Below are positions 17,010 through 61,396 of a DNA stretch of 64,000 nucleotides, piece after piece. The stretch lies in the UHGV virus genome UHGV-0021788; one strand, given 5' to 3'. The translations under genes were made by a program, and so were the position numbers. How positions within the stretch are numbered: position 1 is the stretch's first letter; each line of letters opens with the position of its first letter. Origin of the DNA: a virus. The notes under the pieces are model-generated. The model was not told where the DNA came from, did not search any database, and was given only the letters and a program-made list of their open reading frames with translations.

Positions 17010-17396
17010 AATAACTTTGCGATTTCATCTGATGGTGTAACAGAAGCATTACAACGTGGTGGTTCTGTATTATCTAACTATGGAGTAGATTTAAAAGATT
17101 CTATTGCAATGATAACTGGGGCAAATGAATCTTTACAAGACCCCGCTCGTATAGGTAATGGTTTAAAATCTATAGCAATTAACCTTTCAGGTATTAAAAC
17201 AAATGCAAAAACAGGTGCTCTTGAATTAAATAAAACAGCAAAAGCATTGCAAGAAACTGCTAAGATAGATATATTTACTGATAGTACTAAAACACAAGTT
17301 AAAGATGTTGTTACTATAATGGATGAAGTAAAAGATAAATGGGCTTCTTTAACTGATGTTGAACAAAAAGGATTGTCAGAAGCTATAGCTGGTAAT
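17010..17396 (+). CDS. Tail tape measure protein, exon 3.
   Basis: The frame opens at 17001. It contains the conserved TMP core (NNFAISSDGVTEALQRGGSVLSNYGVDLKDSIAMITGANESLQDPARIGNGLKSIAINL). The track's ORF at 17109-17402 is the same frame. Confidence 0.65.
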
Positions 17397-17750
17397 ATGT
17401 AAGATTAGTAAATTTATATAAATTTTTATAAAATACAAAAATCTTAAAATTGCCGTCTTTGATAGAAATATTAAAGATAATTAGAGGGATGTATCGGTGA
17501 AGCCTAAGTCGAAAGATATGGTAATACCGAGGGTATCTTAACAGAGAATATCCGTAACGCATAGGGAGTGAGCGATATTGTTAGCAATAACCTCCCCACG
17601 AGCTTCCTCCACGATTATATATAGGATAATCACTTATAGATGTTGCTACTATAAGTTCTAACGTTAAACGAGAGTGAAAATATATGCTGGACTTATGAGA
17701 AATCATAAGAAGTGGATGTGTGAATCGACACACTATTAATAGATAAAAAG
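17397..17750 (+). mobile_element. Intron-like element, class 2 (ORF-less), inside the TMP gene.
   Basis: A paralog of 16324-16595. It is noncoding. The downstream frame opens at 17748, so exon 3 joins exon 4 at a codon boundary. Confidence 0.55.
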
Positions 17751-20700: not shown

Positions 20701-23700
20701 AAGAAGGTACTGCTAAGACAAAAATAGAAGGAGATACTTCTGGAGCTGAAAAAGTAAAGAAAGAAGTAGATAATTTAGCTGTCAACAAAAAAGGTACGGT
20801 TACTTTATTAGTAAATGGTCAAGAAAAAATAGCTGAAGCTAAAGTTGTCAAAGGTCAATTAGAAGTAGATGGTAAAGCAGTTACAAGTATTTCTGTTAAT
20901 GGTAAAGACCAATTACCAATAGCTATTAATGAAAAAGGTCAATTAGAAGTAAATGGTCAAGCTATAACTGATGTAACTGTAAAAAATGGAGACCAATTAA
21001 AATTAACAAGAAATGAAAAAGGTCAATTAGAAGTAAATGGTCAAGCTATAACTGATATCAAGGTATATGGGAAAGAAAATGTTAAAGATGCAAAAAAAGA
21101 TGTTGATGATTTAACCAAAGATAATAAAAATGTTAGTATTAACATTGATGTTTCATTAAAAGAAACTGTTGGTGAAATATTATCAAGATTTGGATTAAAT
21201 AAGAAAACAGAAAATGTTGAAATTAATGTAACATGTAATGATAATGCAACTCCAGTATTAGAAAAAATAATGGCAAGACAAGATAAAACTATACAAATAA
21301 AAGTAGACTGCCAAGATAATGCAACATCTAAAATAAACAGTATAGCTAAAATAGGAAATAAAACTGTAACAGTTACAATAAATTGTCAAGATAATGCAAC
21401 ATCTAAAATAAACAGTATAGCTAGTATGGGTAATAAATCTGTAACAGTTACAATAAATTGTCAAGATAATGCAAGTTCTACAATAAATAGAGTTACAAGT
21501 GCACCTTCTTCTAAAGCAATAAATGTTGTAGTAACTTGTACAAATGGTGGAGCAGTTCTTAATACTCTTTCTCAATTAGCTAGTAAAGTAATACCTAGTA
21601 AAAAATTTACTATAAACTGTACAGATAGTGCTAGTAGTGTAGTAAGTAGAGTTAATGGTTTAAAAATATCTGATAAGAAATTTACTATAAATTGTACAGA
21701 TAATGCAACTGCTAAAATAAATAAAGTTATTAGTAAAAAAATACCAAATAAATCATTTACTATAAGTTGTACTGATAATGCTAGTAGTAAATTAAGTAGT
21801 ATTATAAGTAAAATAAGTAATATTCGTAGTAAATCAGTAACAATTACTACTAATCATGTAAGCACAGGCGACCATTCATCTGTTGGTGAACCAACAATTG
21901 TTGATTTACAACCTCAACCATTTAGTAGTACTCAAGCTTCTAATCCTCAAGTGCAATCATTAGGAGAACAAGTTCAAGTATTAAGCGATAGTGTGCAACA
22001 ACAAACTGACAACAATAATGAAGTTAGCGTAATGGCTAAGAAAACATATAAAGCTAATATTGATACAGGTTTAACAGTAAGTGCAGTTAAATATAATATT
22101 GATTTATTAACTAACATGACTAATATGCTTAAAAAATTAGGAACTCAAGTTGATATATTAAAAGCTAAACAAGAAAGAACTTGGGGTACTGCAAGTGCTA
22201 AGTTACTTAGAAATCAAATTTCTTTACTAACTAAACAACAAGATTTAACTAAAATAAATATTAAAAACATGGAAGGTATGGCTAAAAAACTTAAAGGTAG
22301 TTTACAAAAACAAGGATTTAAGTTTAAAGATGATGGAACTATAAGTAATTACAATAGTAAGCTTATAAAAATGCAAAAAAATGTTGAAAGTTTAGAGAAA
22401 GCTGAAAAAGCACTAGAAGACCAAATAAGTAAAACTGAAAAACAAATTTCAAAATCTGAAAAGAAATCTTCAAGTAAGAAGAAATCAACTAGTAAGAAAA
22501 AGAAAAGTACTAGTAAGAAAAAGAGTACGAGCAAAAAGAAGAAAACTTCAAGCAAGAAGAAATCAACTAAGAAAAAGAGCACTAAGAAGAAAACTACTAA
22601 GAAGAAGAGTGCTAGTAGAAGCAATAGAAAAACTACATCAAGTAAAGCTAGTAAAAAGAAGACTACTAAGAAGAAAAAATCAACTAGTAAGAAAAAAAGT
22701 ACATCAACTAAGAAGAAGAGTACTAAAAAGAGTACTAAAAAGAAGACTACTTCTAAGAAGAAATCAACCACTAAGAAGAAAAGTACATCTTCAAGCAAGA
22801 AATCAAAAGCAACTAAAGCATTAGAAAAGAAAAAGAGCGGATTAGAAAAGAAAAAGGATGCAATAAGCAAACAATTAGAAAAAGCACAAAAAGAATTATC
22901 AGAAACTCAAAGCAAATTAAATGAATATTATAATTTACAATTTAGTGAAATTCCTGAAGCTCAACAACAATGGGAAGAATATGCTAATGCTATAGCAGAA
23001 GCTAAGGCAGAAATAATTAGATGTGAATTAGAAGCTAAAACATTCTTTAAGACAGTTAAGATGGAAATGAAAGATGCTATGATTAGCAGAAATGAAACTT
23101 GGGCAGATACATTTATGTTGAAGGCTGATTTAAGTAGTTGGTCTAAAGCAATAGGATATATTAAAGAAGCTAATAAATTATTAGCAAAAAATCAACAACA
23201 TCAACAATCAAAATTAGAAACAGCTCAAGCAAGAGCAGAAGATAACAAGGCATTTTTAAAGAAACAAGGATTTAAATTTGATAAAAATGGATATGTAACA
23301 GGTGCTGAAAAAACTTTACAAAAACTTAAAAAGAAGAAATCATCACAAGAATATGATGCTATAAAAGAAGCATTTGATAGTTATGTTGATGATATGTATG
23401 AAAATATTCCCAAAGCTGAAAATGAATGGTGGAAATTAGAACAGGAAATAAAAGAAAATGAAAGACAAATAAAAGAAACTACTAAATCTATGAATGATTT
23501 AGTTAATTCAGCTAAAGTAGATAAATTAACTAGACAATTTGATGTACTTTCAAATACTTTAGATATATTAGACCTTAAAATGGAACGTGCTTATGGAGCT
23601 AATAAAATAGACTATATGAAACAACAACTTGATATATTATCTAATATGAAAAGTAAGAATCAAGAAATCATTAATCAAAATACTGAGTTATTAAATAATA

Positions 23701-24611
23701 GTAAGAAACAATTAGTTAAATATGGCATTACATTTGATGAAGATGGCAATATAGACAATCTATCAAAAGCATTGAAAAAATTAGATAATCTACAAGATAT
23801 GGAAGATTTAAAAGATTTAGCTGATGAATATAATGATTATAAAGATTCAATAGATGATGCTAGTAAATCAATTGAAGAAGAAACTAATAAACAACTTGAA
23901 TTAAAAGATTCAATGATGGAAATTAGAGAAGAAATGAGAAAACTTAGAGATGATGCATGGGTTAAAACTTATGAAAATGGTCTAAAAGTTATTCAAAATC
24001 GTATTGATACAATAGATTCTTTATTAGATTTAGAAGATGAAAATCAATTTAGTTTACTAAATCAAAAAATTGAAGAATATAAGAATTTAACTAAAGCGAC
24101 TGAGGATAGTTTGGCTTATCAAAAACATAGAAAAATCACTATGCAAAAAACATTGATTGATTATGGTTTCACTATTAATGATGATGGTACAATAGATGGA
24201 ACTGCTAATAAATTAGAACAACTTAAAAATACATTATCTGAAACTGAATTTGGTATAGTAAGTGATACATTAGAAGATTATTTTGATACTGCTTTAGATA
24301 CAATTCCTGAATTAGAAAGAGAATTAATAAAATATCAAAAAGATTTAAAAGATATACAAAATACTAAACTAGAAAAGACTAAAACTATTGAAGAAAAAAT
24401 TACTGAAATATATAACGATGAAATAGATAAAAGAACTAAAAAGATACAAGAAGAAGCAGAAGCACAAACTAAAGCACTTAATAAAGCCAAAGAATCTTAT
24501 CAGAGATGGAGAGACGAAGTTGACTATAAAGATGATTATAATAAACAATTAAAAACTGTTGAAGATTTACAAAAGAAAATAGAAATAGCAAAACGAGATG
24601 ACAGCCTAACT
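17751..24611 (+). CDS. Tail tape measure protein, exon 4. It contains hydrophobic segments, tandem peptide repeats and a lysine/serine/threonine basic tract.
   Basis: Continuous frame from 17748 to 24611. Internal tandem repeats lie at about 20560-20775, 20826-21065 and 21306-21500. The lysine/serine/threonine tract lies at about 22456-22815. Confidence 0.65.
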
Positions 24612-24825
24612 GGGTAATGTTGCCCTAGTCGTAAAGTAATTTGCGACTGAAAATAGATTTAATTGCAGGTAATCCCTAAAGCTCTACACCACAATATATC
24701 TGAAAAGAATATATGAAGGTACGAAAGTAGAAAAAACGTAGAGATTCTCATATGGTTAAATCCTAAGTGAGAGTAACAATGGGTGTTCATGCAAGGAAGA
24801 TTCTAAATTAAATTATTTTAAATAT

Positions 24826-24877: not shown

Positions 24878-26002
24878 ATGAAAACTAAGTGGACAAAAGA
24901 AGCAATAATAAAATATATAGAGGAACAAGATTATATTTTTATAAATTTTATAAAATTTGATAAATTAAGCTCAAGAATATTAATAAGATGTAATAATAAA
25001 AAGCATAAACCATATGAAGTTACTTTTGCTAATTTCAAAACTGGGAAAAGATGTCCAAAATGCAGTGAAATAAAAAGAAGAAAAAAAAGAACAATATGGA
25101 ATAAAGAAAAAATAATTGATTTTGTAGAAGATAATAACTATGAATTTATTGAATTTGTTAAATTTGATAAAATTGAAAGTATAATTAAGGTATGGTGTAA
25201 AAATTTAAAACATGAACCATATAATGTTAAATTTGCAAATTTTAAAAATGGACAAAGATGTAGAAAATGTTCTGATGAAATAAAAAGTAAAAAATTTTCG
25301 CATAATTATGAATATGTCAAAGAATATATTGAATCATTTGGATATAAAATGTTATCAAACGAATATATAAATTTACATAGCGAAATAAAAATATTATGTG
25401 ACAAACATGGGATATATAAGACAACATTTCAATTATTTAAAATGGCGAAATATAAATGCCCAAAGTGTTCGGATGAACATAGAGGAGAATATCATAAATT
25501 AAATTATGAATATATTAAAGAATATATTGAATCATTTGGATATGAAATATTATCAAATGAATATATAAATATGAAAACAAATATATTGGTAAAGTGTCCA
25601 AATGGTCATAAATCATATTTTACTAATTTTGATAGGTTTAAAAGAGGAGACAGATGCCCTTATTGTAACGAATCTAAAGGTGAGAAAAAAATTAATGAGA
25701 TTTTAAATAAATATAATATGAATTTTAAATCACAATATAAATTTAATAATTGTAAAAGTAAAAGAGAATTACCATTTGATTTTTATATATCTGATTTAAA
25801 TATAGCGATAGAATATGATGGAATACAGCATTATAAAATAATAGAATATTTTAGTGGACTTGATGGTTTCATAACCACTAAAATACATGATGTTATAAAA
25901 ACAAGATATTGTGAAGATAATAATATAAAATTAATTAGAATACCGTATTGGGAATATGATGATATAGAAAGTATATTAATAAAAGAACTTAATTTAAAAT
26001 AA
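24878..26002 (+). CDS. Intron-encoded homing endonuclease with four Zn-ribbon modules and a Vsr-like/DUF559 domain.
   Basis: Repeated W.K..II.F.E...Y.FI.F.K......I...C modules, with CPKC repeated three times. The C-terminal part reads LPFDFYISDLNIAIEYDGIQH..IKLIRIPYWEY. Confidence 0.75.
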   Translation: MKTKWTKEAIIKYIEEQDYIFINFIKFDKLSSRILIRCNNKKHKPYEVTFANFKTGKRCPKCSEIKRRKKRTIWNKEKIIDFVEDNNYEFIEFVKFDKIESIIKVWCKNLKHEPYNVKFANFKNGQRCRKCSDEIKSKKFSHNYEYVKEYIESFGYKMLSNEYINLHSEIKILCDKHGIYKTTFQLFKMAKYKCPKCSDEHRGEYHKLNYEYIKEYIESFGYEILSNEYINMKTNILVKCPNGHKSYFTNFDRFKRGDRCPYCNESKGEKKINEILNKYNMNFKSQYKFNNCKSKRELPFDFYISDLNIAIEYDGIQHYKIIEYFSGLDGFITTKIHDVIKTRYCEDNNIKLIRIPYWEYDDIESILIKELNLK

Positions 26003-47749: not shown

Positions 47750-48697
47750 ATGTTATGTTATGTAAAAGATACGGAAAAGTATTATAATTGGAAAAATAGT
47801 ATTTGGTCAGAATTTAGTGGAGGCGGTTCTGGCAATTTACTAATTTATAGAGTTGATAATTTTAACGATATGAATTCTATTAATACAAAAAATCTTGAAT
47901 ATGGAAGTTTATGTCATGTATTAAATGATGAAAACTTAAGATATATGTATTATTATGGTAAAGAGGGTTGGCAATCAATCAGCCATAAATATAAAGTGTG
48001 GATAGGTAAAGAACCACCAAATGATAAAAACTCTCTTTGGGTTGACACAAGAATGATGGAATTAGATTTATCAACAGGTCAAGAATCAAGTATACCTCAA
48101 TCTGTTAAATATTTAATAAATGTAATTAGTAATCTATCTAATGAAATTATCAATCTAACAGCAAAAGTAAACATATTAAATAATGAAATAGAAACTATTA
48201 AAAAGCAAATTGGTAGTGGTGGAATTATTACTGATAATAATATATATCTTACTACTGAAGACGATAAGATTATTACAACAGAAGATGGAATTCCTATTTT
48301 ATATGAAGAAAGTAAAGGTAACAGTGGAGGTTCAGGCGGTGGTACTGGTGGTGAAGATAAACCTCCTATTGATAACAACACCTATATTGTTACTGAAGAT
48401 GATAAAATCATTACTACTGAAGATGGAATTCCTATTTTATATGAAGAAAGTAAAGGTGGTAGTGGAGGAGGAACTACTCCTAGTGTTGATAATAATACTT
48501 ATATTACAACTGAAGATGGTAAAGTTATTACAACAGAAGATGGAAAACTTATATTACATGAACAAAGTAAAGGCAACAGTGGTGGTACTACAGGAGATAC
48601 AGATAAAACAGATAAAAATACTTATATAATTAGTGAAAATGGTAAAATAATAATTACCGAGAATGGTAAAGCTATTATACCAGAAAATAAAAAATAA
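47750..48697 (+). CDS. Tail fibre-like protein with four or five tandem roughly 40-aa repeats (NTYI.TEDDKIITTEDGIPILYEESKG.SGG).
   Basis: Repeats lie at about 48230-48690. The frame is open upstream of the annotated ATG, back to 47639. Confidence 0.45.
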   Translation: MLCYVKDTEKYYNWKNSIWSEFSGGGSGNLLIYRVDNFNDMNSINTKNLEYGSLCHVLNDENLRYMYYYGKEGWQSISHKYKVWIGKEPPNDKNSLWVDTRMMELDLSTGQESSIPQSVKYLINVISNLSNEIINLTAKVNILNNEIETIKKQIGSGGIITDNNIYLTTEDDKIITTEDGIPILYEESKGNSGGSGGGTGGEDKPPIDNNTYIVTEDDKIITTEDGIPILYEESKGGSGGGTTPSVDNNTYITTEDGKVITTEDGKLILHEQSKGNSGGTTGDTDKTDKNTYIISENGKIIITENGKAIIPENKK

Positions 48698-48702
48698 AGG
48701 AG

Positions 48703-49975
48703 TTGGATATATTGGAAACTATTAAGAAAAGTGCATTTCAAGAAATTGGTATTCTTAATGATAATGATTATTTTGATATAGTTACTAATACAAATGTTAA
48801 TAGAAGAATTAAATTTTCAGCAATGAAAGAAGCTATAAATAATAGTGTTAATTCTTATGTCGATGTTAAAGCAAAAAATGGAAAAATTTTCAGATTAACT
48901 GTTAATAATGAAGGGGAAATAATTTGTCAAAATGCTGAAGCATATACTGCTACTGCTCCAGAAAAAACTGAAAGTGGTAGATTTGCTGGTTTAATGATAA
49001 ACATGATATATGGTGGTGGAAATAATAAAAATAATACTGCTTGTTCACATCACTTTATAGAATTATATAATCAAAGTACTAGTAGTATGGATTTAAATTT
49101 AAAAGGACTTTATTTATCTGTTAAAAGTAATACAGGTGATTGGCAATCTCTTGCATTAGAGGGTATAATACCTTATCAACATTCATTCCTTGTAAGATGT
49201 AATCAAGTTTCTAATCCTGTACTATTAGGTACTAGATGTAAAATAGATACATATGACCAAGAATGGAATATAGATTTAACTGATGTAGGATTTAGTGCTT
49301 ATTTATCAATAGGAACACCTACAACTGTTAATCCAGCTAATGCAGATGGTAATATGAATAAAGAAGTTGGATATATAGACTTAATGGGTGCTGGTGGAAC
49401 ACAAGAAACACAAGGAGTTAAAGCTTTTGAAACTGCCTATCCAATGTTGATGACTAAAGATATAGGTTGTAGAAGACTTGACTTTGCTGATACAGATAAT
49501 AATCAAAAAAACTGTAGAGCAATAAATTGGAAAACTTGTGATGTAAGTGTCTATAAACCTAGAAGTGTATCAGATGGTAAATGGGACTTATACTTTAACA
49601 AAGCAAAACTAAAATCTACAATGCCTAATCTAATAAATATGTGTTATGGACAAGATGGTTCTAAAACTAGAACATTTACTTTCCAAACTGTATTAACTGA
49701 TGAAGGTTATATTAAATGGAGAAAATACGGAGAATTAAAATGGAATAAAAAACCTACTACTAAAGAAATAATAACTCACTATGATTGTGATGCTACTTTA
49801 CATAGAGTTTTTATTACTGATTTACAACCTGGAATTTATGAATATCAATGTGGTTCTGAAGGTGCATGGAGTGATATAAGTACTTTTGAAGTAAGAAATT
49901 ATGCACAAACTGCTGATAAAAGTAATTTTGTACATAACGATATAAAAATGTTATGGACTACAGACCAACAAGCAT
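48703..49975 (+). CDS. Purple-acid-phosphatase-like metallophosphoesterase tail protein, exon 1 (N-terminal domain plus the PAP N-domain).
   Basis: HRVFITDLQPGIYEYQCGSEGAWSDISTFEV matches the Pur_ac_phosph_N pattern. The real start is possibly the TTG at 48712. The frame is interrupted by the intron at 49976. Confidence 0.5.
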
Positions 49976-50194
49976 GGACTAACATATAGTCCCTATATTA
50001 AGTGATTAGTATAGTAAATCCTTTGAATTGCTGGTAAATCCTAAAGCCTTATAAACTACAACATGATTAGAAATAATGAGTGTGAATGTTACGAAAGTAG
50101 AAAAAATTATAAGGATAACATATGGTTAAATCCTAAGTGTTATATACAATGGAAGCTCAGCAGGTAAGATTCTAAATTAAATTATTTTAAATAC

Positions 50195-50223
50195 TTGACT
50201 TTTAATAAGATAAATTGTATAAT
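50195..50223 (+). promoter_or_regulatory. Intron-internal promoter for the HEG: TTGACT-17-TATAAT.
   Basis: Consensus -35 and -10 elements with a 17-nt spacer, followed by a GTGAGGTGA RBS. Confidence 0.55.
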
Positions 50224-50245
50224 ATAAGTAAAGTGAGGTGATAAA

Positions 50246-51160
50246 ATGGGAAGAAAGAAAACACATGAGGAATTTATGAAAGAGTTTTATGAAAAAAATC
50301 CTAATGCTAAAAATATAGAAATATTAGGAAAATATGAAGGTAGAAAAGTAAAAATTTTATGTATGTGTAAAATAGATAACTATAAATGGCATACAACTCC
50401 TAATGGATTATTGGGAAGTAAAAATATTAAACCAAATGGATGTCCGAAATGTGCTGGAAAAATAAAAAAAACACATAAACAATTTATAGAAGAAATGAAT
50501 GAAATAAATCCAAATATTAAAATATTGGGGCGTTACATAGATGCTAAAACTAAGATAGAATGTGAATGTAAAATAGATGGATATAAATGGGAAGTTGAAC
50601 CAACTAATTTGCTACAGAAAAGAGGATGTCCAAAATGTGCTAATAAAATACCTAGAGAACATGATGATTTTGTTAAAGAATTAAATAACATCAATCCTAA
50701 TATAAAAATAATAGGTAAATTTATATCTACTAGAACTAAAATAGAATGTGAATGTAAAATAGATGGATATAAATGGGAAGCTGAGCCAAGACATCTTTTA
50801 GGAAATCATGGATGTCCAAAATGTAATGATTCTATTGGAGAAAAAATAACTTATAATATATTAAATAAATTAAATATAAAAAATATAAGACAATACAAAT
50901 TTAAAGATTGTAAATTTTATAAATGTCTTCCTTTTGATTTTTATTTGCCACAATATAATTGTTGTATTGAAATTGATGGTAAGCAACATGAGAATATAGT
51001 CAAATGGTTTGGTGGGTTAGATGGTTTTATAGATAGAAAAATTAGAGATACGGTTAAAGATATATATTGTAAGAATAATGGAATAAAATTAATTAGAATT
51101 ACATATAAAGATATAAATGAAATAGAAAAAATAATTTGTCAAGAACTTAATTTAAATTAA
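50246..51160 (+). CDS. Intron-encoded homing endonuclease with three Zn-ribbon modules and a Vsr-like/DUF559 domain.
   Basis: CPKC repeated three times. The C-terminal part reads LPFDFYLPQYNCCIEIDGKQH..IKLIRITYKDI. Confidence 0.75.
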   Translation: MGRKKTHEEFMKEFYEKNPNAKNIEILGKYEGRKVKILCMCKIDNYKWHTTPNGLLGSKNIKPNGCPKCAGKIKKTHKQFIEEMNEINPNIKILGRYIDAKTKIECECKIDGYKWEVEPTNLLQKRGCPKCANKIPREHDDFVKELNNINPNIKIIGKFISTRTKIECECKIDGYKWEAEPRHLLGNHGCPKCNDSIGEKITYNILNKLNIKNIRQYKFKDCKFYKCLPFDFYLPQYNCCIEIDGKQHENIVKWFGGLDGFIDRKIRDTVKDIYCKNNGIKLIRITYKDINEIEKIICQELNLN

Positions 51161-51319
51161 TTTAATATGAATAAACTTCAACGACTAAGTATCCTAGTAG
51201 TCTAGGTAGTGGAGGATACCCTTATTGGGTAATGATATAGTCTGCTCTCATGGGAAACCATGAGCAGTTTTTATGTAAAAAAACGGATAGAATAGTAACG
51301 ATATTCTATTGAACATAAG

Positions 51320-52155
51320 GTGTTGAGGAATCACAAGCTACTAATGTTTGTTTCCAAAATATAAGTGAATGGGAAAAAGGTACTGATTTTGATTTTCATT
51401 TAAATACAGGCGACATTTCGCAAAATGCAAACAGAAGTTTTGAGTGGAGATACCACTATAAATATGCAGATGACCTAATAAGAACTATGTGTCATCAAAT
51501 AACTTGTGGGAATAATGACTTAATAGATAAGAAATATTCAGATGCATTTACATGGTACATGACACCAGAAGATTATTTCTTACCAGACCAAATAGATAGT
51601 GGTTCAGGTGTTATGGTTAATAATCCTAATAAATGTACTTTTAATTCATGTCATAGTTTTGACTTAGGATATGTACATTTTGTTTGTTTAAATAGTAATA
51701 AAGATTATTCTATGTTTAATGAAAATGAAGGTGAAAAAATAGATGATTGGATACAAAGAGAATGTGCATGGTTAGATGCAGATTTAACTAGAGATGAATC
51801 TAATGCTAAAACAAGATGGGTAATATGTTATATGCATTACGCACCTTTTACAGTATCTAGACCTGACTGGATACAAAGATTTGTTCCTGTATTTGAAAAA
51901 CATAGAGTACATTTAGTATTATGTGGTCACAACCATACAAACTCAAGAAGTATTGTAGTTAGAAGTGGTTATGATGGAGACCCAAATAAAGCAAGCTATG
52001 ACCCTAAAGGTCAAAAAACAGCTGAAGAAGAAACAGCTTTAGGACATGGTACTATAAATCATAATGAAGATTTAAAAAATGGTACTCTTTACCTAATGAT
52101 TAATGCAACTGGATTCAAGAATACAGGTAAAGAAAGTATACAAAATCCTTATCCT
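51320..52155 (+). CDS. Metallophosphoesterase catalytic domain, exon 2.
   Basis: GDISQNA, the GNHE-like LCGHNHTN (GHxH) and YMHYAPF are calcineurin-like phosphoesterase motifs. The frame opens at 51319. Confidence 0.55.
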
Positions 52156-52332
52156 TGGTAAAAAAATATTGCCACTTTACATAGTAATATGTAATGACAA
52201 ACTCATTGAATTGCTGGGACGACCTTAGAGCCTTAATGCCACAATATAAGAGAAATCATTATATGAAGGTTTAAAAAGTTTAAGGATTGGTTAATCAGCA
52301 GGTAAGATTCTAAATTAAATTATTTTAAATAC

Positions 52333-52361
52333 TTGACTTTTAATAAGATAAATTGTATAAT
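52333..52361 (+). promoter_or_regulatory. Intron-internal promoter for the HEG: TTGACT-17-TATAAT.
   Basis: Identical to the cassette at 50195-50223. Confidence 0.55.
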
Positions 52362-52384
52362 ATAAGTAGAGTGAGGTGATAAAT

Positions 52385-53299
52385 ATGGGTAAAAAGAAAA
52401 CACATGAGGAATTTATGAAAGAGTTTTATGAAAAAAATCCTAATGCTAAAAATATAGAAATATTAGGAAAATATGAAGGAAACAATAAACCTATTAAATG
52501 TCGTTGCAGAATAGATGAATACGAATGGTATCCAAGACCTTGTCATTTATTGGGAAATAAAAATGCTAAACCTACTGGTTGTCCTAAGTGTAGTGGAAAA
52601 GCAAAAAGAACAAATGAAGAGTTTATTAAGGAAATATATATAATAAACCCTAATATAGAAATACTTAGTGAATATAGTGGAGTTAGTAATTTAATAGATT
52701 GTCGTTGTAAAATAGATGATTATGAGTGGTCATCAATTGCTGATAATTTATTACATGGACATGGTTGTCCTAAATGTGGAGGACAAATAAAAAAGGAACA
52801 TGAAGAGTTTGTAAAAGAAATGGAAGAAATAAATCCCAATATAGAAATACTTGGGGAATACAATGGAGTTCATGAATATATTTTATGTGGATGTAAAATA
52901 TGTAATCATGAATGGACAACTCGTCCTCATGAATTATTAAATGAATACGGATGTCCTTCTTGTAATATATCTCGAGGAGAATTTAAAATAAAAACTTTAT
53001 TAGAAAAATATCAAAAACAATATAAATATCAATATAAATTTAAAGATTGTAAATTTTATAATGAATTACCTTTTGATTTTTATTTACCTGATTATAATAT
53101 TGCAATAGAATATGATGGAGAACAGCATTATAAAATAATTAAACAATTTGGTGGAATAAATAGATTAATAGATAGTAAAATAAGGGATACTGTTAAAACT
53201 GAATATTGTAAAAATAATAACATAAAACTTATAAGAATACCTTATTGGAATTATAAAGATATAGAAAATATACTTATAAAAGAACTTAATTTAAAATAA
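52385..53299 (+). CDS. Intron-encoded homing endonuclease with a Zn ribbon and a Vsr-like/DUF559 domain.
   Basis: CPKCSG, CPKCGG and CPSC motifs. LPFDFYLPDYNIAIEYDGEQH..IKLIRIPYWNY. The ATG at 52385 follows a GTGAGGTGA RBS. Confidence 0.75.
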   Translation: MGKKKTHEEFMKEFYEKNPNAKNIEILGKYEGNNKPIKCRCRIDEYEWYPRPCHLLGNKNAKPTGCPKCSGKAKRTNEEFIKEIYIINPNIEILSEYSGVSNLIDCRCKIDDYEWSSIADNLLHGHGCPKCGGQIKKEHEEFVKEMEEINPNIEILGEYNGVHEYILCGCKICNHEWTTRPHELLNEYGCPSCNISRGEFKIKTLLEKYQKQYKYQYKFKDCKFYNELPFDFYLPDYNIAIEYDGEQHYKIIKQFGGINRLIDSKIRDTVKTEYCKNNNIKLIRIPYWNYKDIENILIKELNLK

Positions 53300-53475
53300 T
53301 TTAACATGAATAAACTTCAACGACTATCCTGTAATGGAGTAGGGTTCAAGCGAACTCGAAGTAGTGAGCATCTTAATAAAGATGAAGATATAGTCTAGTC
53401 TCATGGGAAACCATGAGCAGTTTTTGTGCGTAAAAACAAAACGGGTTAGGTGTAGCGAACCTAATTGAATATAAC

Positions 53476-53690
53476 GGGTATGGATTAAGAACTTCACATC
53501 CAACACAACCAACTTATGCAACATTAACTATAGGTTGGGATAAGATAGAATATAAATGCTATAAGATAATGAACACATTAAGTAAAGATAGAAACGGAAA
53601 TACAATAGTAGTGCCTTATGGTAGTCAAACTAAAGAATTGTATGATAGTTGTACTCTTAATTGGAGAGCAAAAGGTCAAACACTAATATA
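53476..53690 (+). CDS. Metallophosphoesterase, exon 3 (C-terminal, about 71 aa).
   Basis: The frame is open from 53434 to the TAG at 53688-53690. It joins exon 2 at a codon boundary (..NPYP/GYGLRTSHPTQ..). Confidence 0.4.
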
Positions 53691-53704
53691 GGTGGTGATA
53701 GTTT

Positions 53705-56377
53705 ATGCCTAATAGAATTTGGAGTGAAGAAAAAAAAGATTGGATAATAGTCGATGAAACAAATTTAGCTACAAATATAGAAGTAATGGATATCAAAGAG
53801 TACTATCATAAAAAGAAAACAGAAGAAGAAACAAAAGATGATGAATTTTTAAGTGTTGAAAAATGCTTAGAACAAATAGGGGATAAAATAAATAATGGTG
53901 ATATAGGTGCTATAGGTGAAATAAAAGATAAAGTACAAGATTTGGATGACAGAGTAACCTATATTGAAGAAAACGGTGGTGGTGGAGGAGGTGGCTCTTC
54001 CATGCCTACCGTTAAACTTCTTAGTGATAGTTATTATGCTATACCAACCGATGGAGAATTAAATATTTATTATAACTTTACTTCTCCAAATATAGGATTT
54101 GGTACAGCATTTATAAGTTTAGACTATGGAACAGCTGAACAGTTATCAGTTGCACAAGGTCGTAATTTTTATACTGTAAAAAACTTAGAAAAAGGTGAAC
54201 ATAGACTAGATATATATGTAACTGATATAACAGGTTTATTCTCGAATACAGTTACAGTAACAATAGTTGTTGGTGGACTTGAATTAACTTCTAATTTTGA
54301 CGATAGTACGGATTTATCCTTAGAGGATTATATTAGAATAAGATATGTTATCTCAACAATATCTTCTAAGCCAATTGAAGTGTCTATTGAAATAGATGGT
54401 AAACTAACAAAAGCAGAAGGTATAATTGGTCAAAATATATTGGAAGTTGGACAGTTTAGTTCATTAGGGGTTCATACAGTTAAAATATCAGCCGTCAGTG
54501 GTGATTTAGTATCAAACCAATTAGTATTTAATTTAGTTGTAGCCGATTCAGAAAATCTTTATGTATCTACTACTTTTCCTGATAATTATACTATACAAGT
54601 AGGTAAAAACCTACAAATTGATTATAGAAATAGTATGGTAAATCAAAATAGATTTATTACTCATATGCTTATAAATGGTACTGAAGTAGATACGGTAACA
54701 TCTTATTCAGGATATAACTATTGGAACGTTGGGTCTAATTTAGAGATAGGTTTATATACTTTAACATTATATTCTACTACATCCGATGGTGCATATACAT
54801 CAAATTATTTAACATGGGTAATAGATGTTGTTTCAGAAGACTATGTTCCCTTTAAGGTTGTAACAGATGGGTTATTATGTAATTTTGATGCTAATGGTAA
54901 TCAACAAACATCTTCTAGTAGAAACATATGGAAAGACGATAGTGGAAACGACGTTAAATGTGAATTGTTTAATTTCAACTATTCTACAAATGGTTGGATA
55001 GATAACAGTTTAGTATTTAATGGTAAAACATATGCTAAAATAGATTTTTCTCCTTTTAGTGATAATATCAAAAATGGTATGACAATTGATATGTTATTTA
55101 AAGTAAAAAATGTTGGTGATATAGACGGAAAAGTATTATGGTGTAAAAATCCAATTACACCTTACCAAGGTTTTTATATAAATACTTATGAGGCAAATTG
55201 TCGTTCTGCCAACTCAAGAATAGTTAGTAACCAATTTCAAGATGACACATGGACTAGAATAACATGGGTTATTAATAGAGAAGATTTGACAATGATAGCT
55301 TATGTAAATGGTATCATAACGAAACCTGTATATATAACAGATACAGAAAACTTTAGAATGGAAAAAGATATTTATCTAGGTGTATCATTTGACGAAGTAG
55401 ATAACAATTTAGATAATGATGGTAATCCAATACCTCACTATGCATCTTGTTCTATAAAAACATTTAGAATATATGATAGAGCATTAACTGATGAAGAAAT
55501 ATTACAAAATCATATTGCCGATATAAAAGATAAAGAAAAACAATTGGAAATAAGAGAAAAGAACTATGGTGATAGTACAATGCCTATCATAAAATTTGAA
55601 GGTAATGTAGAAGGTATGGATGGTAGTATCTATAAATTATTAACAATAGATTATAATGACCCATTAGACCCATCTAAACGTTTTAGACAAGAACAATGTA
55701 GAGTAAAATGGCAAGGTACTTCTTCACTAGAATATCCAGTAAAAAACTATACAATAGAACTTAGAAGTGGTGGTAACGTTTGGGAATATGCTCCTAAAGA
55801 CAATTGGCTACCAGAAAAAAGATATACTTTGAAGGCTTCGTTTATGGATAGTTCTACATATAATAACGTTGGTTCTTCTAAATTAATTTATGATTACTTT
55901 AGAAAATCTAATATGTTTTATCCACAAGAAATTAAAAATCCTAAAACTAGAGCAGTAATAGATGGTTTCCCAGTTAGACTTTATATTAATGGGGAATCAA
56001 AAGGTATATATATGTTCAATATAGATAGATATGCTGAAAACAATTATGGATTTTCTGGGGAATCATCAATTGTATCTTATGAAATAGCTGTCAACTCTGA
56101 AAGTGGTGCTGGTGCTTTCGCATCAGATGCTTGGTCAAGTATACGTTCTGAATTTGAAATGAGATATCATTATGCTGGAGATGAAAGTGTTGTATGTGAA
56201 ACTGTTATGGAAAATGGTGTACCAACTACTGTTTTAAAAGCAGGTTTTCATTCAGAATTACAAAATTTAGTTTCATGGGTATTAAATTCTACTATAGAAG
56301 AGTTTAGAAGTGAATTAAAAGAACATTTTGAATTAAACTTTTTAATAGATTATTATCTATGGGTTCTATGTTTGGGT
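53705..56377 (+). CDS. Giant host-interaction protein, exon 1: a Gly-rich linker, Ig-like region, LamG (ConA-like) domain and the N-terminal part of a CotH-like domain.
   Basis: LamG-like NSLVFNGKTYAKIDFSP...TWTRITWVINRED..AYVNG. CotH-like KRYTLKASFMDSSTYNNVGSSKLIYDYF...VRLYINGESKGIYMFNIDRY. The RBS resembles that at 47598. Confidence 0.55.
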
Positions 56378-56469
56378 TAATACAATGGCTCAAGTAAAAC
56401 TTTCTCTGATTAATGGCGAACACCCTAGTAGAAAAGGGCAACGCTCAAGAAGATTTATTTAACAATATT

Positions 56470-56498
56470 TTGACTTTTAATAAAATAAGTAGTATAAT
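56470..56498 (+). promoter_or_regulatory. Intron-internal promoter for the GIY-YIG HEG: TTGACT-17-TATAAT.
   Basis: The same cassette (ttgacttttaataaaataagtagtataatataa) as the Vsr-like HEGs. Confidence 0.5.
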
Positions 56499-56519
56499 AT
56501 AAATGAAAGGGGTGATACT

Positions 56520-57230
56520 ATGAGTGAAAATAAATATTATGTTTATGAATGGATTAGATTAGACACAAATGAACCATTTTATGTAGGTAAAGGTTGTGGA
56601 GATAGATGGAGGAATTTATATAGGGATTACAATCCTCGTTTTATGAATATAATAAATAAAGTACCAGTAGCAGTATCAATATTAATAAATAATTTAACAG
56701 AAAAGGAATCTTTTGATTTTGAATGTTATTATATATGGTTATATAAAGATATTATAGGATATGATATATGCAATATAAATGAAGGTGGGGAAGGTCAAAG
56801 TTTATGTGGTGAAGCTAATGGTTTTTATGGTAAACATCATTCAGAAGAAACTAAAAAATTATTAAGTGAACAACATAAAGGCATGACTTATTCTCAAGAG
56901 ACAAAAAATAAATTGAGTGCTATGAGAAAAGGTGAAGGGAACGCTATGTGGGGACGTAGAGGAGAATTATCTCCGCATTGGGGTAAAAAATATTCAGAAG
57001 AAAGAAAAAATAATATTAGTAAAGCAATGGGTACTTCTGTAAAGTGTATTGAATTAAATATAGAATTTAATAGTCTTAATAAAGCAGAAAAATATATGAT
57101 TAAAGAATATGATATTAAATTTTCTCATAAAACTTTAAAAGCTACGATAGAAAAAAGAAGAAAAAAAGATTGGTATGGAGAAATAGAAATTAATGGAGAA
57201 TTAATTAAACTTCATTGGGAATATTGTTAA
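56520..57230 (+). CDS. GIY-YIG homing endonuclease with NUMOD3 repeats (I-TevI-like).
   Basis: YVYEWIRLDTNEPFYVGKGCGDRW (the GIY-YIG motif). Repeated GKHHSEETKKKLS / SQETKNKLS / SEERKNNIS (NUMOD3). Confidence 0.75.
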   Translation: MSENKYYVYEWIRLDTNEPFYVGKGCGDRWRNLYRDYNPRFMNIINKVPVAVSILINNLTEKESFDFECYYIWLYKDIIGYDICNINEGGEGQSLCGEANGFYGKHHSEETKKLLSEQHKGMTYSQETKNKLSAMRKGEGNAMWGRRGELSPHWGKKYSEERKNNISKAMGTSVKCIELNIEFNSLNKAEKYMIKEYDIKFSHKTLKATIEKRRKKDWYGEIEINGELIKLHWEYC

Positions 57231-57446
57231 ATAAAATCACTTGCAACGACTGAGTGAGAAAGGCTTAAAGATTAATTCTTTAAGTAAGCAACAGTCTGAA
57301 CTTGCGAATATAATTTCTACAAAAAACAAATCGCAGAAGAGGGGTCATCGGTAATCAGACCGATTAAAGAAGAACCCCTCTCGCCAACTTAGGTTGGTCA
57401 GTAGCCGAAAGGTGAAAGTAACAGAATGCTAGTAGACAACTTGGGT

Positions 57447-57691
57447 TTAATGATTTTGGCTCAAGTATAAAATTCTCTCTGATTAATGGCGAACACCCTA
57501 GTAGAAAAGGGCAACGCTCAGGAAGATTTATAAAATCACCTGCAACGACTGAGTGAGAGAACACTTATTTAAGTGAAGCAACAGTCTGAACTGCAAATAT
57601 AATTTCTACAATAACAAATTGCAGAAGGAAGTTGAAGTGCTTCCTCGCCAACTCAAGTTGGTCAGTAACCGAAAGGTGAAAGTAACAGAAT
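57447..57691 (+). mobile_element. Intron-like element, class 3, ORF-less. It is a tandem near-copy of the preceding element without the endonuclease.
   Basis: The 5' and 3' blocks are near-identical to 56388-56460 and 57345-57424. A putative mini-exon of about 19-22 nt lies at 57428-57446. Confidence 0.45.
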
Positions 57692-57745
57692 TGAAAAATA
57701 TGGTTTTAACAACTTTCGGTATGAATGCTGAAGGTAACGTAATTT
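57692..57745 (+). CDS. Putative short CotH exon (LKNMVLTTFGMNAEGNVI).
   Basis: This frame is open only here. The peptide continues a CotH-like core when joined to WYDADSELG of the next exon. Confidence 0.35.
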
Positions 57746-58001
57746 GGTATCCATCCTTTGACATAGGAGGATGTAAAACTCTCTTTAATTGACTTGGAAG
57801 TCCTGAAGAGGACGACAGGGGGCAAGTTTAAATACAGCCTGAACGACTAAACAAGAGAGCATTATCATATTGATAATGATGTGATAGTCTGAACTCTAGT
57901 AATAACTTGTTTTAATGAAACTAGAGAAGGAAATCCGAAGTGTTTTCCTCGCCATAAAATATTATGGTCAGTAGCTTAGGAATAAGTGAAAGTAACAGAA
58001 T
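57746..58001 (+). mobile_element. Intron-like element, class 3, a divergent third copy, ORF-less.
   Basis: It has the same 3' terminus (cctcgcca....gtcagta.c...gtgaaagtaacagaa) and an analogous 5' block (gtaaaactctctttaattgacttgg). A tggtat repeat occurs at both junctions. Confidence 0.45.
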
Positions 58002-61000
58002 GGTATGATGCAGACTCAGAGTTGGGTTTAACCAACGATGGTGAGTTAAGATACGGTTCAGGTATCGACACTTTAACAGATAATTTCAATACTTCTGATT
58101 CTAAATTATGGACTAAATTACTAGAAGCTTTCCCAGATGAAGTACAAGCAAGATATATCTATATGAGAAGTAATGGATTTATGACTTATGAAAATATTAT
58201 AAAATATTATGAAAATATAGCAGATACAATTGGTCAAACATTCTATAATGAAGATGCAAGACTTAAATATATTAATGAAGATAATAAATCATTTATTTAT
58301 ATGTGTAATGGTTCAAGACTTGAACATACAAAAAGATGGTTAAGCGAACGTATTGTATATATGGATAGTAAATTTAACTATGGTGATTTCTTATTATCTT
58401 CTACTATACGTTCAAATGTTTCCGGTGAGGTATCATTAAAAGTAAAAACATATTCACCTCAATGGGTAGAAATATCTTTCTCAGATAGTGCTACAGGTAC
58501 AACAAGACAATGGTGTAGTAAAGATAAATGGTATACATTTATAAATACCATTGAAAATGCCGTCGACAACAATATCACCATTAGAGGTGTAACTAATATA
58601 ATGTATTTACAAGGATTAGAAAATTTAAATGTATCTTCTTTACTTGTATCAAATGCAAAAGGTTTATGTGAAATTGATATTCATGGTTCTAAACGTATTC
58701 AAAGATTGGAACTAGGTAACAATATCATGTTACAAAAACTTAATTGTAAAGATTGTATTAATTTAGGTATTGATGATAACTATAAAGTTGTTAACTTGGA
58801 AAAATGTATCAACTTAAAATATCTTGATTTATCTAATACTATGATAGGTACACTTCAATTAAATAAAGATGGTGGTGCATTAGAATATTTAGATTTATCT
58901 GAAACAGAATTAACTTATTTAACTTGTAACCATCAAGAATATTTACCTGAAATAAAATTAGATGGTTGTAAAAATCTATCATCTGTTACTATTAATGGTT
59001 GTAATGCATTAACAAGATTGAGTTTACCTAATACTAAATTAGCTGAATTTACTGTAACAGATTGTAATAGTTTAAATTACCTTGATATATCATATACTGG
59101 TTATTTAGTAAAATTAGATTTAACAGGTTGTAGTAGTTTAACTACTTTAATAATGTCAGGTATAGCAAATAATAAATTTACTGAATTAGATGCGAGAACA
59201 TTAACAAAATTAACAACATTAGATGTGTCTAAATGTTATTTCTTAAATAATATAAGATTTGCTAATGGATATAATGCTTTAACATCTGTAAACTTCCAAC
59301 AAAGTGGGATTAAGACTTTACAGTTTGGAAATAATGAAAAACCTCCTTATTTAGATTTATCTCCATTTAATTTAACAGAAGTTAATTTCTATAACTGTAC
59401 TGAAATAGAATATATTAAAAATATAAAATTATATGCTACAAAATCCATAGAACCTTTTTATAATTGTGTTAATTTACACACTATAGAAGGTACTATAAGT
59501 TTAACTGATGATTTAGGAAGAAGTTTTTATAATTGTAAAAAACTAGTTAATTTACCTACTTTAGATTTAAGTAGAGTTAAAACAGCTTCGGATTCCTTTA
59601 TGCATTGTGAGTCTTTAACTTATGACCAATTACTAGAAATTTTAGGTAAGATGAATAATTGTCAAAGTTTTTATAGAACTTTCCAAAACTGTTTAGCTAT
59701 GGAACATGACGGTTGGGAAAAAGCTTTATTCGATAAGATACCAAAAGCAACTTATTTTTATTGGACATTCTCAGATACTCCAATAAGCGGACAATTAGAG
59801 CAAGGAATCTTTGATAGTTTATTAGATTTACAAACTGTAGATGGATTATTTAGCGGTGGTAAGGCAAAAGGTTATATTCCAGCCAATCTATTCAAATATA
59901 ATACAAAATTACAAAATCTTTGGAATCTATTTAATGGATGTAAAGAATTAGAAACTGCTACTAATATAGTAAACATGTTTACCACTACAGTAGATTTAAG
60001 AGGTATAGAGGGATTATTTAGTGGTTGTACTAATGCTTTTATGAAACTAAGTGATACATGGTTTGCAAATTGTCCAGAGCTACAAAATATGGATTATGCT
60101 TTTGCAAATTGTACAAACTTAATTGGTTCTATAGCTGAAAATCCTCATATGATAAAAAATAAATCTAAATTAACAACAGCAGAACATACCTTCCTTAATT
60201 GTACAGGCATAAGTGGTGATTTACCTGATGATTATTTTGTTGGGTGTACTGCTTTACAAGAAATACAAGGACATTTTCAAGGATGTACTGGTCTAACAGG
60301 AACTCCTAAAACTGAATCATGGATAGATTGTGAAAATATAACTAATGCTTCATATTTATATGCAGGATGTACTGGTTTAGGTGGTATAGCAGGTGCTACT
60401 CAAGAAATACCTAAAGATTTCTATAAAAGAAAATATAGACTTATAGATATATCTGGTATGTGGCAAGGTTGTAATCAACTACAATTTTCTCTAATGCCAT
60501 TAAAAGAAGATAAGTTAGGTGAGGATGGAGCTGTTATAGAAAAAGGGGACGACCCTTGGTTTGTTGATTGTAGACAGTTAGCGAAAATAAATTATCTATT
60601 TGATGGTTGTAGTAATTTATCATCTGTAATACCTTCTAGGTTATTTGAAGTTTGGGATGAAAAAGGCGAAGTAATGGATACACTTATAACAGAAGCTAAA
60701 GCGGTATTTAAAAATTGTCAATTACTTACAGATGAAATACCAGAAAATCTATTTGAAAAATTTATTAAAGTTAGAGATTTAACTGAATTTTTCTATCAAT
60801 GTAGAAGTTTAACTGGTGGTATTCCTGATACATTATTTTCTAATTGTTATTCTTTAGTTTATGCTAATAGAATGTTTATGCGTTGTGGTAAATTAGGAAA
60901 ATATGCAGACCAAGTAACAGAAGAAGAGCCATATTTCTGTAATGAAGAACTATTTTGGAACTGTCCTAACCTATTGGAAATATCTCAATTATTCCATATG

Positions 61001-61396
61001 TATGATGGATGGGGAACTTCTCTAAGAGGAGACATACCTCCATTGTTATTTAGAGCTAATCCTAAATTACAAAATATAAATAATGCCTTTGCTGGTTGTA
61101 GTCTTTTAACTGGTGGGTTGGATGGGCAACTATTTGTTAGAAATGCTAAATTAAAAACTGCTAGAGAAACTTTCCACGGTTGCTCAGGTTTAAATGGAGA
61201 AATGAGTGGAGCGTTATTTACCTCTACTAATAATCCACTTTTAACAGATTTCTATCAAACCTTTCAAAATTGTAAAAATATACAAGGTACTGCACCTTCA
61301 TTATGGACACAATTCTCTAATGCAAATGGTGGAGGATGTTTTAATGGATGTACTAAATTAAGTAATTATGCAGATATACCTTCACAATGGAAATAA
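58002..61396 (+). CDS. Giant host-interaction protein, last exon: the CotH C-terminal part plus an extensive BspA-type leucine-rich repeat region.
   Basis: The frame is open from 57986. LRR_5-like repeats (F.gCt.L.g.i......f..C..L) run through about 59300-61300. A strong terminator follows. Confidence 0.55.

Follow-up and report, generated by a model that had tools for sequence, protein, structure and literature searches.

Here we describe a phosphoesterase gene on a stretch of 64,000 nucleotides (nt) of the virus genome UHGV-0021788, further referred to as the window. The gene occupies positions 48712-53691 of the + strand and is a single unit with a product of 773 amino acids (aa), laid out in three exons that are separated by two introns. 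Taken as a whole, the locus very probably represents one tail-module phosphoesterase gene carrying two mobile group IA introns. The original prediction had likewise proposed one gene split by two endonuclease-bearing introns, and this view is borne out by the group I cores, by the existence of intronless homologues and by the end-to-end alignment of the joined protein. Neither component is of a new kind: mobile introns of group IA type are known from phage genes, and members of the phosphatase family have been annotated before in phage G and in crAss-like phages. Going beyond that prediction are a family-wide intron hot spot at catalytic codons, the C-G splice-site pair at the 5' end of intron 1 and a conserved phosphoesterase-CotH gene pair.

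Five open reading frames (ORFs) are found on the + strand of the region: three pieces of the phosphoesterase and, between them, two ORFs of ~304 aa. The first piece (ORF 48703-49989, 428 aa) matches the family Pur_ac_phosph_N (PF16656, 32.6 bits against a cut-off of 30), in agreement with the purple acid phosphatase (PAP) N-domain signature that had been noted in exon 1, and shows a weak match to LTD. The Metallophos family (PF00149) is matched in the frame containing ORF 51487-52161 (+), and the C-terminal piece is a short frame ending at 53691. After joining, PF16656 and PF00149 both exceed their cut-offs (31.9 bits against 21.5 for PF00149); a third family that had been suggested for the joined protein, PF14008, gives no match at E ≤ 1. 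Among 5.8 billion proteins searched, uninterrupted homologues of 762-773 aa were retrieved that cover 99-100% of the joined sequence at 72-79% identity. Since these homologues are collinear with the joined sequence, the three pieces belong to one gene.

Exon 1 (48712-49979, +) encodes residues 1-422 and the first two nucleotides of codon T423. It holds an N-terminal region, an LTD-like immunoglobulin (Ig) domain, a PAP_N/FN3-like domain and motif I of the phosphoesterase (TTD418-Q-Q420). Intron 1 (49980-51320, +; 1341 nt), probably of group IA, is inserted in phase 2 in codon T423 (AC/U; a slash marks an insertion site or junction here and below). Exon 2 (51321-52159, +) contributes the last nucleotide of codon 423, residues 424-702 and the first nucleotide of W703, and contains motifs II (G453-D454-ISQ457), III (G486-N487-N488-D489), IV (H595) and V (G625-H626-N-H628). 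The metallophosphoesterase motifs had been placed in exon 2, which is right for the PF00149 match and for motifs II-V but not for motif I (TTDQQ), found in exon 1. Intron 2 (52160-53476, +; 1317 nt), also probably of group IA, lies in phase 1 in codon W703 (U/GG) and is followed by exon 3 (53477-53691, +) with the last two nucleotides of W703, residues 704-773 and the stop, a conserved C-terminal beta-rich region. The start codon is likely TTG 48712, which is located 9 nt after AGGAG (48698-48702) and agrees with the gene call in L003, a metagenomic relative with 97% identity; an alternative upstream TTG (48703) abuts the ribosome-binding site.

The exact junctions are 49979/51321 and 52159/53477, where the protein reads QQAWT/VEE and NPYPW/WYG, respectively. 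At junction 1 all homologues read QQ(A/G/S)(W/F/P)T-x-EE. L003 has no intron 1 and reads GCATGGACAGTCGAAGAA (QQAWTVEE), with the codons GCA TGG ACA GTC GAA GAA across the site, whereas L010 (73% identical) has an intron at exactly this site, with exons meeting at AWT/VEE, and lacks intron 2. The homologues, together with L003 and L010, therefore fix the end of exon 1 and place intron 1 at 49980-51320, ending in G51320. For junction 2 three alternative joins were compared and the one matching the NPYPWWYG of the homologues was retained; it demands that exon 2 ends at T52159, that the intron ends at G53476 and that exon 3 starts at 53477. The predicted ligated RNA reads ...GCAUGGAC/UGUUGAG... 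at junction 1 and ...CCUUGGU/GGUAUGG... at junction 2. Written as DNA, these are GCATGGAC/TGTTGAGG (with longer flanks CAACAAGCATGGAC/TGTTGAGGAATCAC) and CCTTGGT/GGTATGG (with longer flanks AATCCTTATCCTTGGT/GGTATGGATTAAGA), and a synthetic intronless target site would read CCTTGGTGGTATGG. These positions differ by 1-4 nt from those of the original prediction, whose junctions had to be abandoned: 49975/51320 yields QQACVEE, one residue short of every homologue, and leaves U49975 without a partner in helix P1, while 52155/53476 would have the intron end in C and conflicts with the required NPYPWWYG.

The first in-frame start codon of exon 2 is at 51487, so that none is present in its first 55 codons (including the invariant GD of motif II), and that of exon 3 is at 53569, with none in the first 30 codons. 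Ratios of nonsynonymous to synonymous substitution rates (dN/dS) against L010 are 0.27, 0.165 and 0.33 for exons 1, 2 and 3. Shown by this comparison, all three exons are coding and, as judged from the substitution pattern, under purifying selection. Because start codons are missing at the heads of exons 2 and 3 and their dN/dS values are in the range of 0.165-0.33, translation of these exons would need splicing. The alternative is a gene that is permanently split, with free-standing endonuclease genes and either three polypeptides that maybe reassemble or a dead pseudogene. Some endonuclease-split phage genes indeed work as separate pieces, and an in-frame stop 10 nt into intron 1 terminates the exon 1 frame. 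Nonetheless, separate polypeptides and a pseudogene are both disfavoured by the missing starts and the selection on every exon, and exact removal of the introns gives a protein that is collinear with intronless homologues; we regard a permanent split as highly improbable.

In order along the chain, the joined protein has an N-terminal region and an LTD-like Ig domain, then the PAP_N/FN3-like and the binuclear metallophosphoesterase domains, and finally a beta-rich region at the C-terminus. Its fold was approached through an AlphaFold2 model of the 79%-identical homologue P0003, computed with 54 homologues, which reached a predicted local distance difference test score (pLDDT) of 85.8 and a predicted template modelling score (pTM) of 0.81. 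The region of exon 3 has a pLDDT of 84-97 in blocks 711-760, followed by 82 and 46 at the extreme C-terminus. Searching the PDB with this model using Foldseek returned plant PAPs first (E 3e-20, TM 0.72 on target) and mammalian PAPs next, and a profile search of PDB sequences returned PAPs only (E 1e-5). When viral models are compared, phage G gp352 and 'phosphatases' of crAss-like phages match best. The likeness to plant PAPs (kidney bean and sweet potato; PDB 6hwr, 1xzw, 2qfp, 1kbp) consists of an FN3-like domain packed on the metallophosphoesterase domain. In contrast, identity to these enzymes is only 13-14%, GDISQ replaces GDxxY and GNND replaces GNHE, and the phage protein has ~300 extra N-terminal residues (with the LTD-like domain), an extra C-terminal region and a phage tail context.

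The ligands of PAPs are D, D, Y, N, H, H and H, in the motifs GDxG / GDxxY / GNH(D/E) / VxxH / GHxH. Based on motif order and spacing together with these familiar PAP motifs, the five motifs TTD418-Q-Q420, G453-D454-I-S-Q457, G486-N487-N488-D489, H595 and G625-H626-N-H628 occur in canonical order, and in the P0003 model a predicted beta strand precedes each of TTDQQ, GDISQ, GNND, H595 and GHNH. Six canonical metal ligands are present (D418, D454, N487, H595, H626 and H628). The Tyr ligand of GDxxY is replaced by an invariant Gln (GDISQ457), so the seven-ligand PAP set is incomplete, and the superfamily His residues of motifs I and III (DxH and GNH) are replaced by the invariant Q420 and N488. 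No variation is seen at D418, Q420, D454, Q457, N487, N488, H595, H626 and H628 among 54-55 sequences reaching down to ~42% identity, and phage G gp352 still shows the motif signature at 36% identity. Going by the model, the protein is PAP-like in fold with a conserved non-canonical metal site, so that it does not count as a true purple acid phosphatase. The earlier label 'purple-acid-phosphatase-like' is therefore apt for the fold, shared with plant PAPs, and fails for the active site, which lacks the Tyr ligand and the GNH His; as the Tyr ligand is absent, a purple chromophore is not expected.

It might be argued that such a domain is catalytically silent and serves a structural or receptor-binding virion component as a metal-stabilized binding or scaffold module. 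The exchange of the catalytic His of GNH(D/E) for Asn and of the DxH His and the PAP Tyr for Gln would fit this, and Ig-like and FN3-like domains next to tail-fibre genes suit binding. On the other hand, the six canonical ligands and the substituted positions are invariant in the 54-55 sequences and in phage G, which exceeds the usual need of a scaffold, and some active metallophosphoesterases do without the GNH His. We consider a silent module unlikely.

Turning to the introns, their 3' halves and an ORF-less paralogue were searched singly against Rfam, as full-length introns with their 1-kb ORF cannot reach the cut-off. The 3' half of intron 1 matches RF00028 (Intron_gpI) with 39.9 bits (E 2.6e-9) and that of intron 2 with 39.2 bits (E 4.9e-9), both as 5'-truncated matches. 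The ORF-less paralogue, at ~16619 (or 16629) to 17009 in the tape-measure gene, reaches 68.9 bits in a search of its own (cut-off 50, E 1.7e-17). This intron is missed by the whole-window scan at the gathering threshold, hence the default scan gives false negatives here. The R element TTCAACGACTA has 8 matches in all with at most one mismatch, against 0.9 expected, and the 7 on the + strand (window positions 522, 4195, 9552, 16815, 26019, 51177 and 53316) mark paralogous group I introns, probably of subgroup IA. At least seven such introns reside within 64 kb of structural genes, a very high density for a phage tail module. Most of them carry the same zinc-finger/nuclease family (phrog_559/9084), with further ORFs at 3261-4187, 8823-9536 and 24878-26002.

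Six paralogues were aligned after removal of their ORFs and folded with RNAalifold. They have in common the elements P (AAUUGCUGG), Q (UCAGCAGG), R and S (GAUAUAGUC), and the consensus recovers P2, P4, P5, P7, P8, P9, P9.1 and P9.2, with compensatory changes in 32 of the 70 consensus pairs (at least one sequence keeping the pairing through changes on both sides). P3 was identified by hand and covaries between introns (ATCC/GGAT versus CTCA/TGAG). Likewise by hand, hairpins were located between P7 and P3' (51193-51206 in intron 1; 53327-53338 and 53342-53357 in intron 2), an arrangement that would correspond to subgroup IA. In intron 1 (+ strand), P1 is formed by 49976-49981 and 49987-49992 and P4 by 50028-50034 and 50157-50163, followed by R/P7 (51177-51187), S/P7' (51235-51242), P9 (51243-51267) and the terminal G (51320). 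The corresponding elements of intron 2 (+ strand) are P1 (52155-52161 with 52169-52174), P4 (52211-52217 with 52295-52301), R/P7 (53316-53326), S/P7' (53388-53395), P9 (53396-53420) and the terminal G (53476). The terminal guanosine is hence present in both introns (g51320 and g53476), and both 3' ends fit the pattern ...AUA(A)(A/G)(C/G)G/ (...AUAAGG/ or ...AUAACG/) in which each of the six complete paralogous introns terminates. Each endonuclease gene is flanked by a complete group I core, which speaks against a permanently split gene with free-standing endonucleases. The P9 hairpin (CTCATGG GAAA CCATGAG), followed by CAGTTTTT, scores as intrinsic-terminator-like in both introns (51247-51273 and 53400-53426); this may be a coincidence or may limit read-through from the endonuclease gene.

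In the proposed mechanism each transcribed intron would fold into a P1-P9.2 ribozyme, excise itself by guanosine-initiated two-step transesterification and restore the reading frame. Known phage group IA introns include those of T4 td, nrdB and sunY and the three introns of Staphylococcus phage Twort orf142. The introns described here resemble such endonuclease-bearing introns in the P/Q/R/S core with putative P7.1/P7.2 insertions, in an ORF that is looped out from a peripheral helix (P6 in this case) with its own expression signals, and in the occurrence of several introns per phage gene at highly conserved codons. They differ in their host gene (a tail-module phosphoesterase and not a DNA-metabolism, lysin or capsid gene), in the 5' splice site of intron 1, where C-G takes the place of U·G, and in the at least seven paralogous copies within 64 kb of structural genes. 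A capsid example is the major capsid gene of crAss-like Zeta phages, which contains three group I introns (PMC10136315).

In intron 2 (t52159·g52171) and in paralogues B to E, P1 has the U·G pair that is canonical at a 5' splice site. In intron 1 this position is taken by the pair C49979-G49989, within a hairpin (GGACUA/UAGUCC) of the same geometry as in the paralogues; the alternative U49975 faces no base with which it could pair. L005 and L010 also have C-G in their orthologous introns, though the intron side of P1 differs. A literature search on natural non-U 5' splice sites returned nothing usable. At the G453/D454 site of relatives (L030-L037, L006, L003) the junction required by the protein lies 1 or 2 nt upstream of the P1 U·G pair; the splice register may be G/AU or A/GAU there, as intron and exon share a G. 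At the G625/H626 site (L030/L034) the splice-site U appears to be paired with A. Judging from these pairings, several members of the intron lineage may use non-canonical 5' splice-site pairs.

The guide of intron 1, UAGUCC, recurs in distant relatives, in introns that follow the Asp codon of motif I (...ACGGAU/). The 3' half of intron 1 is 82-87% identical to these motif-I introns, against 79-86% over patches of only 42 nt for the paralogues B and E of its own genome. Intron 2 has the guide GCCA and the exon end UGGU, and its closest matches (84-89%) are introns at CG/NND (exon end UGUGGU) in other phages. Shown by these sequence comparisons, both window introns resemble same-gene introns of related phages more than the paralogues of their own genome. 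The guide sequences GUCC and GCCA match the short exon words GGAY and UGGU at both the 'home' and the window sites. Both introns would then derive from same-gene introns that shifted to nearby sites with a 4-nt guide match (ectopic spread), and through such a move the splice-site pair of intron 1 would have become C-G in place of U·G.

Several points weigh against the overall interpretation. Rfam returned no intron in the scan of the whole window at the gathering threshold or in a 4-kb scan at E ≤ 10, and nothing for the 5' half of an intron alone; the empty whole-window scan is attributable to the ~1-kb ORF that interrupts each core (and also to speed filters). Without the near-universal U·G at its splice site, intron 1 might splice slowly or with assistance. 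Concerning the protein, the phosphoesterase has no family match in PHROGs and NCBIfam, the structural model is that of P0003 and not of the window protein, and an active site in which the PAP Tyr ligand is missing along with the DxH His and the catalytic His of GNH could belong to a weak enzyme or a ligand-binding module. Moreover, we infer all four of splicing, endonuclease activity, virion location and catalysis from sequence. The empty scan and the missing U·G would also suit a gene that is permanently split; against this, the C-G intron is kept at the same site in the 73%-identical phage L010.

As regards mobility, endonuclease ORF 1 (50246-51160, +) and ORF 2 (52385-53299, +) each encode 304 aa, are 57% identical to one another and lie in the P6 loop of intron 1 and intron 2, respectively, between the P6a strands. 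Both comprise three treble-clef zinc-finger repeats and a C-terminal nuclease domain resembling the PD-(D/E)XK superfamily (FDFYLP...IEIDGKQH in ORF 1). The Pfam matches of ORF 1 are DUF4379 (1.1e-12), CapR (1.1e-11) and PvuRts1I-like_N (27.0 bits, equal to the cut-off of 27), with DUF2726 below the cut-off. In PHROG the endonucleases match 559 (8.8e-72 and 9e-76), 9084 ('homing endonuclease') and 7140 ('intron encoded nuclease'), and the family is present in 527 phage records. A phmmer search of endonuclease 1 against all PDB chains, including 3R3P, gave no match at E ≤ 1. The protein shares with I-Bth0305I/EDxHD (Vsr-like) and PD-(D/E)XK endonucleases an N-terminal DNA-binding array and a C-terminal nuclease of the restriction-endonuclease-like superfamily, an assignment that rests on borderline Pfam matches. 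It differs from I-Bth0305I in having three treble-clef zinc fingers (DUF4379/CapR) and not NUMOD/HTH (helix-turn-helix), and in the missing sequence match to 3R3P. From these matches it can be inferred that each intron holds an endonuclease gene of the homing type. The sole megablast match of the window to catalogued phages is a stretch of 160 nt (53072-53231, 79%) at the C-terminus of endonuclease 2, in the 636-kb uncultured phage LR756504, which suggests that the endonuclease family moves between very different phages.

Upstream of ORF 1 a promoter-like TTGACT-17 nt-TATAAT (50195-50223, +; 11 of 12 consensus matches) and a ribosome-binding site GAGGTGA (50235-50241, +) are found, and their counterparts in intron 2 are placed identically (TTGACT-17-TATAAT at 52333-52361 and GAGGTGA at 52373-52379, +). 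The promoter-like sites are a lead only, such sites being not enriched in the region overall.

Introns at this gene are polymorphic in presence and absence at the same site among close relatives. L003 and L004 (Logan SRR27430123 and SRR27430357; 97% identical) are without intron 1, and L010 has intron 1 without intron 2. Comparing the window with L003/L004, exon identity falls from ~97% to 91.9% in the 86 nt after the intron 1 insertion site, which looks like a co-conversion tract. Given this tract and the presence/absence polymorphism, homing during co-infection seems probable: the endonuclease would cut intronless alleles and the intron would then be copied in. L003 and L004 contain an apparently ORF-less paralogous intron 30 codons downstream of the intron 1 site, inside motif II (NTG/D).

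The original prediction considered an intron-interrupted enzyme of this class to be rarer still than the class itself. Split alleles turn out to be frequent, with at least six sites in the family and as many as three or four introns in a single gene. The ends of truncated database proteins fall at QQAWT, NTG, NANRS, ITCG and NATG, and a representative search yields many fragments ending at profile positions 420, 426, 455-458, 488 and 623-628. Exon maps made with tblastn for IMG/VR loci (contigs of 147-204 kb with proteins only ~35% identical to the window protein) place introns after D418 and at G453/D454, G486/N487 and G625/H626, with three introns resolved per gene and a probable fourth where a short exon is undetected. 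The contigs of P0010, P0017 and P0018 end inside introns, so that the exon reading of these alleles covers the 5' part. The intron sites coincide with catalytic-motif codons (motifs I, II, III and V), and the introns there belong to the same lineage as those of the window gene. Shown by these truncated proteins and exon maps, intron-split alleles are common in the phosphoesterase family, and the gene is a recurrent landing site. Consequently, many database 'proteins' of 430-490 aa in this family are exon-1 pieces cut at introns, and the present reading corrects the annotation of a gene that automated callers fragment. The natural series of group I introns at catalytic-motif codons offers material for studies of homing, ectopic spread and splice-site recognition.

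Gene content identifies the window as a tail module, from an unclassified phage of low GC. The + strand genes upstream encode tape-measure (phrog_13137, 10871), minor tail (phrog_6211) and tail (phrog_11032, 23437) proteins, so the tail-module location given by the original prediction, downstream of tape-measure and minor-tail genes, is correct. In relatives the gene adjoins collagen-like and Phage_tail_C genes. Directly downstream in the window lies a giant LamG-CotH protein (phrog_9915; 53705-61396, +), in pieces 53705-56380 and 57986-61396. The order phosphoesterase-then-CotH recurs in L007, in L008/L009 and in phage G (gp352/gp353), and in crAss002 the phosphoesterase gp19 is followed by a 2622-aa leucine-rich repeat (LRR) protein. 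Phage CotH domains have been described as unstudied (PMC8008677).

From the gene position and the conserved residues it seems plausible, at somewhat short of even chances, that the protein is associated with the tail fibre or baseplate of the virion as a phosphoesterase that acts on a phosphate-containing host-envelope polymer, coupled to the LamG-CotH giant. The original prediction had proposed teichoic acids or phosphorylated polysaccharides as candidate substrates. Crassvirales tail-spike subunits have been annotated with phosphatase domains (PMC10136315), and PAP-like genes of unknown function occur in Microbacterium phages (PMC12352085). In the phage G literature searched, no statement on virion proteomics of gp352/gp353 was found, and the searches brought up no experiment bearing on where the protein resides or what it does.

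The enzyme could also act on nucleic acid (extracellular DNA of biofilms, or host DNA after ejection) or on nucleotide signals (anti-defence) in place of the envelope. The superfamily does include nucleases and cyclic-nucleotide phosphodiesterases, and LTD domains accompany secreted bacterial hydrolases. A precedent is the mycobacteriophage metallophosphoesterase gp48, which damages host DNA and counters defence (PMC12287305); gp48 is, however, early, small and of another architecture, whereas the present gene has late tail-fibre genes around it and a LamG-CotH-LRR giant as its partner. Furthermore, the fold matches PAPs specifically and not Mre11/SbcD or CpdA-type enzymes, which makes a nucleic-acid or nucleotide target still less probable than a silent binding module.

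A more far-reaching version of the envelope-phosphoesterase reading, which we would call unlikely as it stands, would see the LTD-PAP_N-phosphoesterase and the LamG-CotH(-LRR) giant as a conserved virion-borne phosphoesterase/kinase-like pair, and the lineage at the intron 1 site as a natural group I ribozyme in which a C-G pair at the 5' splice site, arisen by ectopic movement within the gene, still allows efficient splicing. If true, the pair would span from the Bacillus jumbo phage G to large Clostridia-type siphophages and would remodel or cleave an envelope polymer at adsorption, and the phosphoesterase, by its invariant two-metal site with Q/Q/N substitutions, would stand for a new subfamily that has a new substrate.

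The class had been thought rarely described in phage tails, which is contradicted by 346 clusters (at 50% identity) retrieved at E ≤ 1e-30, with members in Bacillus phage G (gp352), Bacteroides DAC/SJC03 phages and crAss-like phages (annotated 'phosphatase'). Phage G gp352 is 35-36% identical over 93% of the length and shares LTD+PAP_N+Metallophos, the motifs TDQQ/GDI[SA]QNANR/GNNDL and a neighbouring LamG-CotH-LRR giant, and crAss002 gp19 shares LTD+Metallophos in a structural block. Both differ from the window gene in being uninterrupted, in their longer N-termini (866 and 1153 aa) and in their morphotypes (myovirus and crAss podovirus-like). A widespread, unstudied tail-module phosphoesterase family with an altered metal site and a CotH partner is a target for work on phages against phosphate-rich envelopes (Gram-positive and Bacteroides hosts). 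Megablast against known phages gave no close relative; the nearest known tail genes are those of 131-kb phiCD211-type Clostridioides phages (37-41% identity), where the phosphoesterase gene is absent.

Some further features of the window were observed. The gap between the two LamG-CotH pieces contains a different endonuclease ORF (phrog_314, 56520-57230) and a different intron or introns, with sub-threshold Intron_gpI matches at 57385-57663 (28.8 bits) and 57706-57911 (23 bits) and a GC rise to 0.37. Just upstream of the phosphoesterase, the gene at 47750-48697 encodes 315 aa with four near-identical repeats (...Y(I/L)TTEDGK(I/V)ITTEDG(I/K)(P/L)IL(Y/H)E(E/Q)SKG(N)SGG...) and without a family match; its product is probably a fibre-like protein. 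The tape-measure frame is found in pieces at 11192-16354, ~17010-17400 and 17796-24617. Two mutually similar non-coding elements ('attagaggg..atcggtgaag.ctaagt..') also interrupt this reading frame, at 16355-16600 and 17400-17790, the second of which has no Rfam match at E ≤ 1; they may represent another intron class or something else. If the pieces (11192-24617) are joined, the tape-measure protein would measure ~4000 aa, and would therefore imply an exceptionally long tail or large extra domains.

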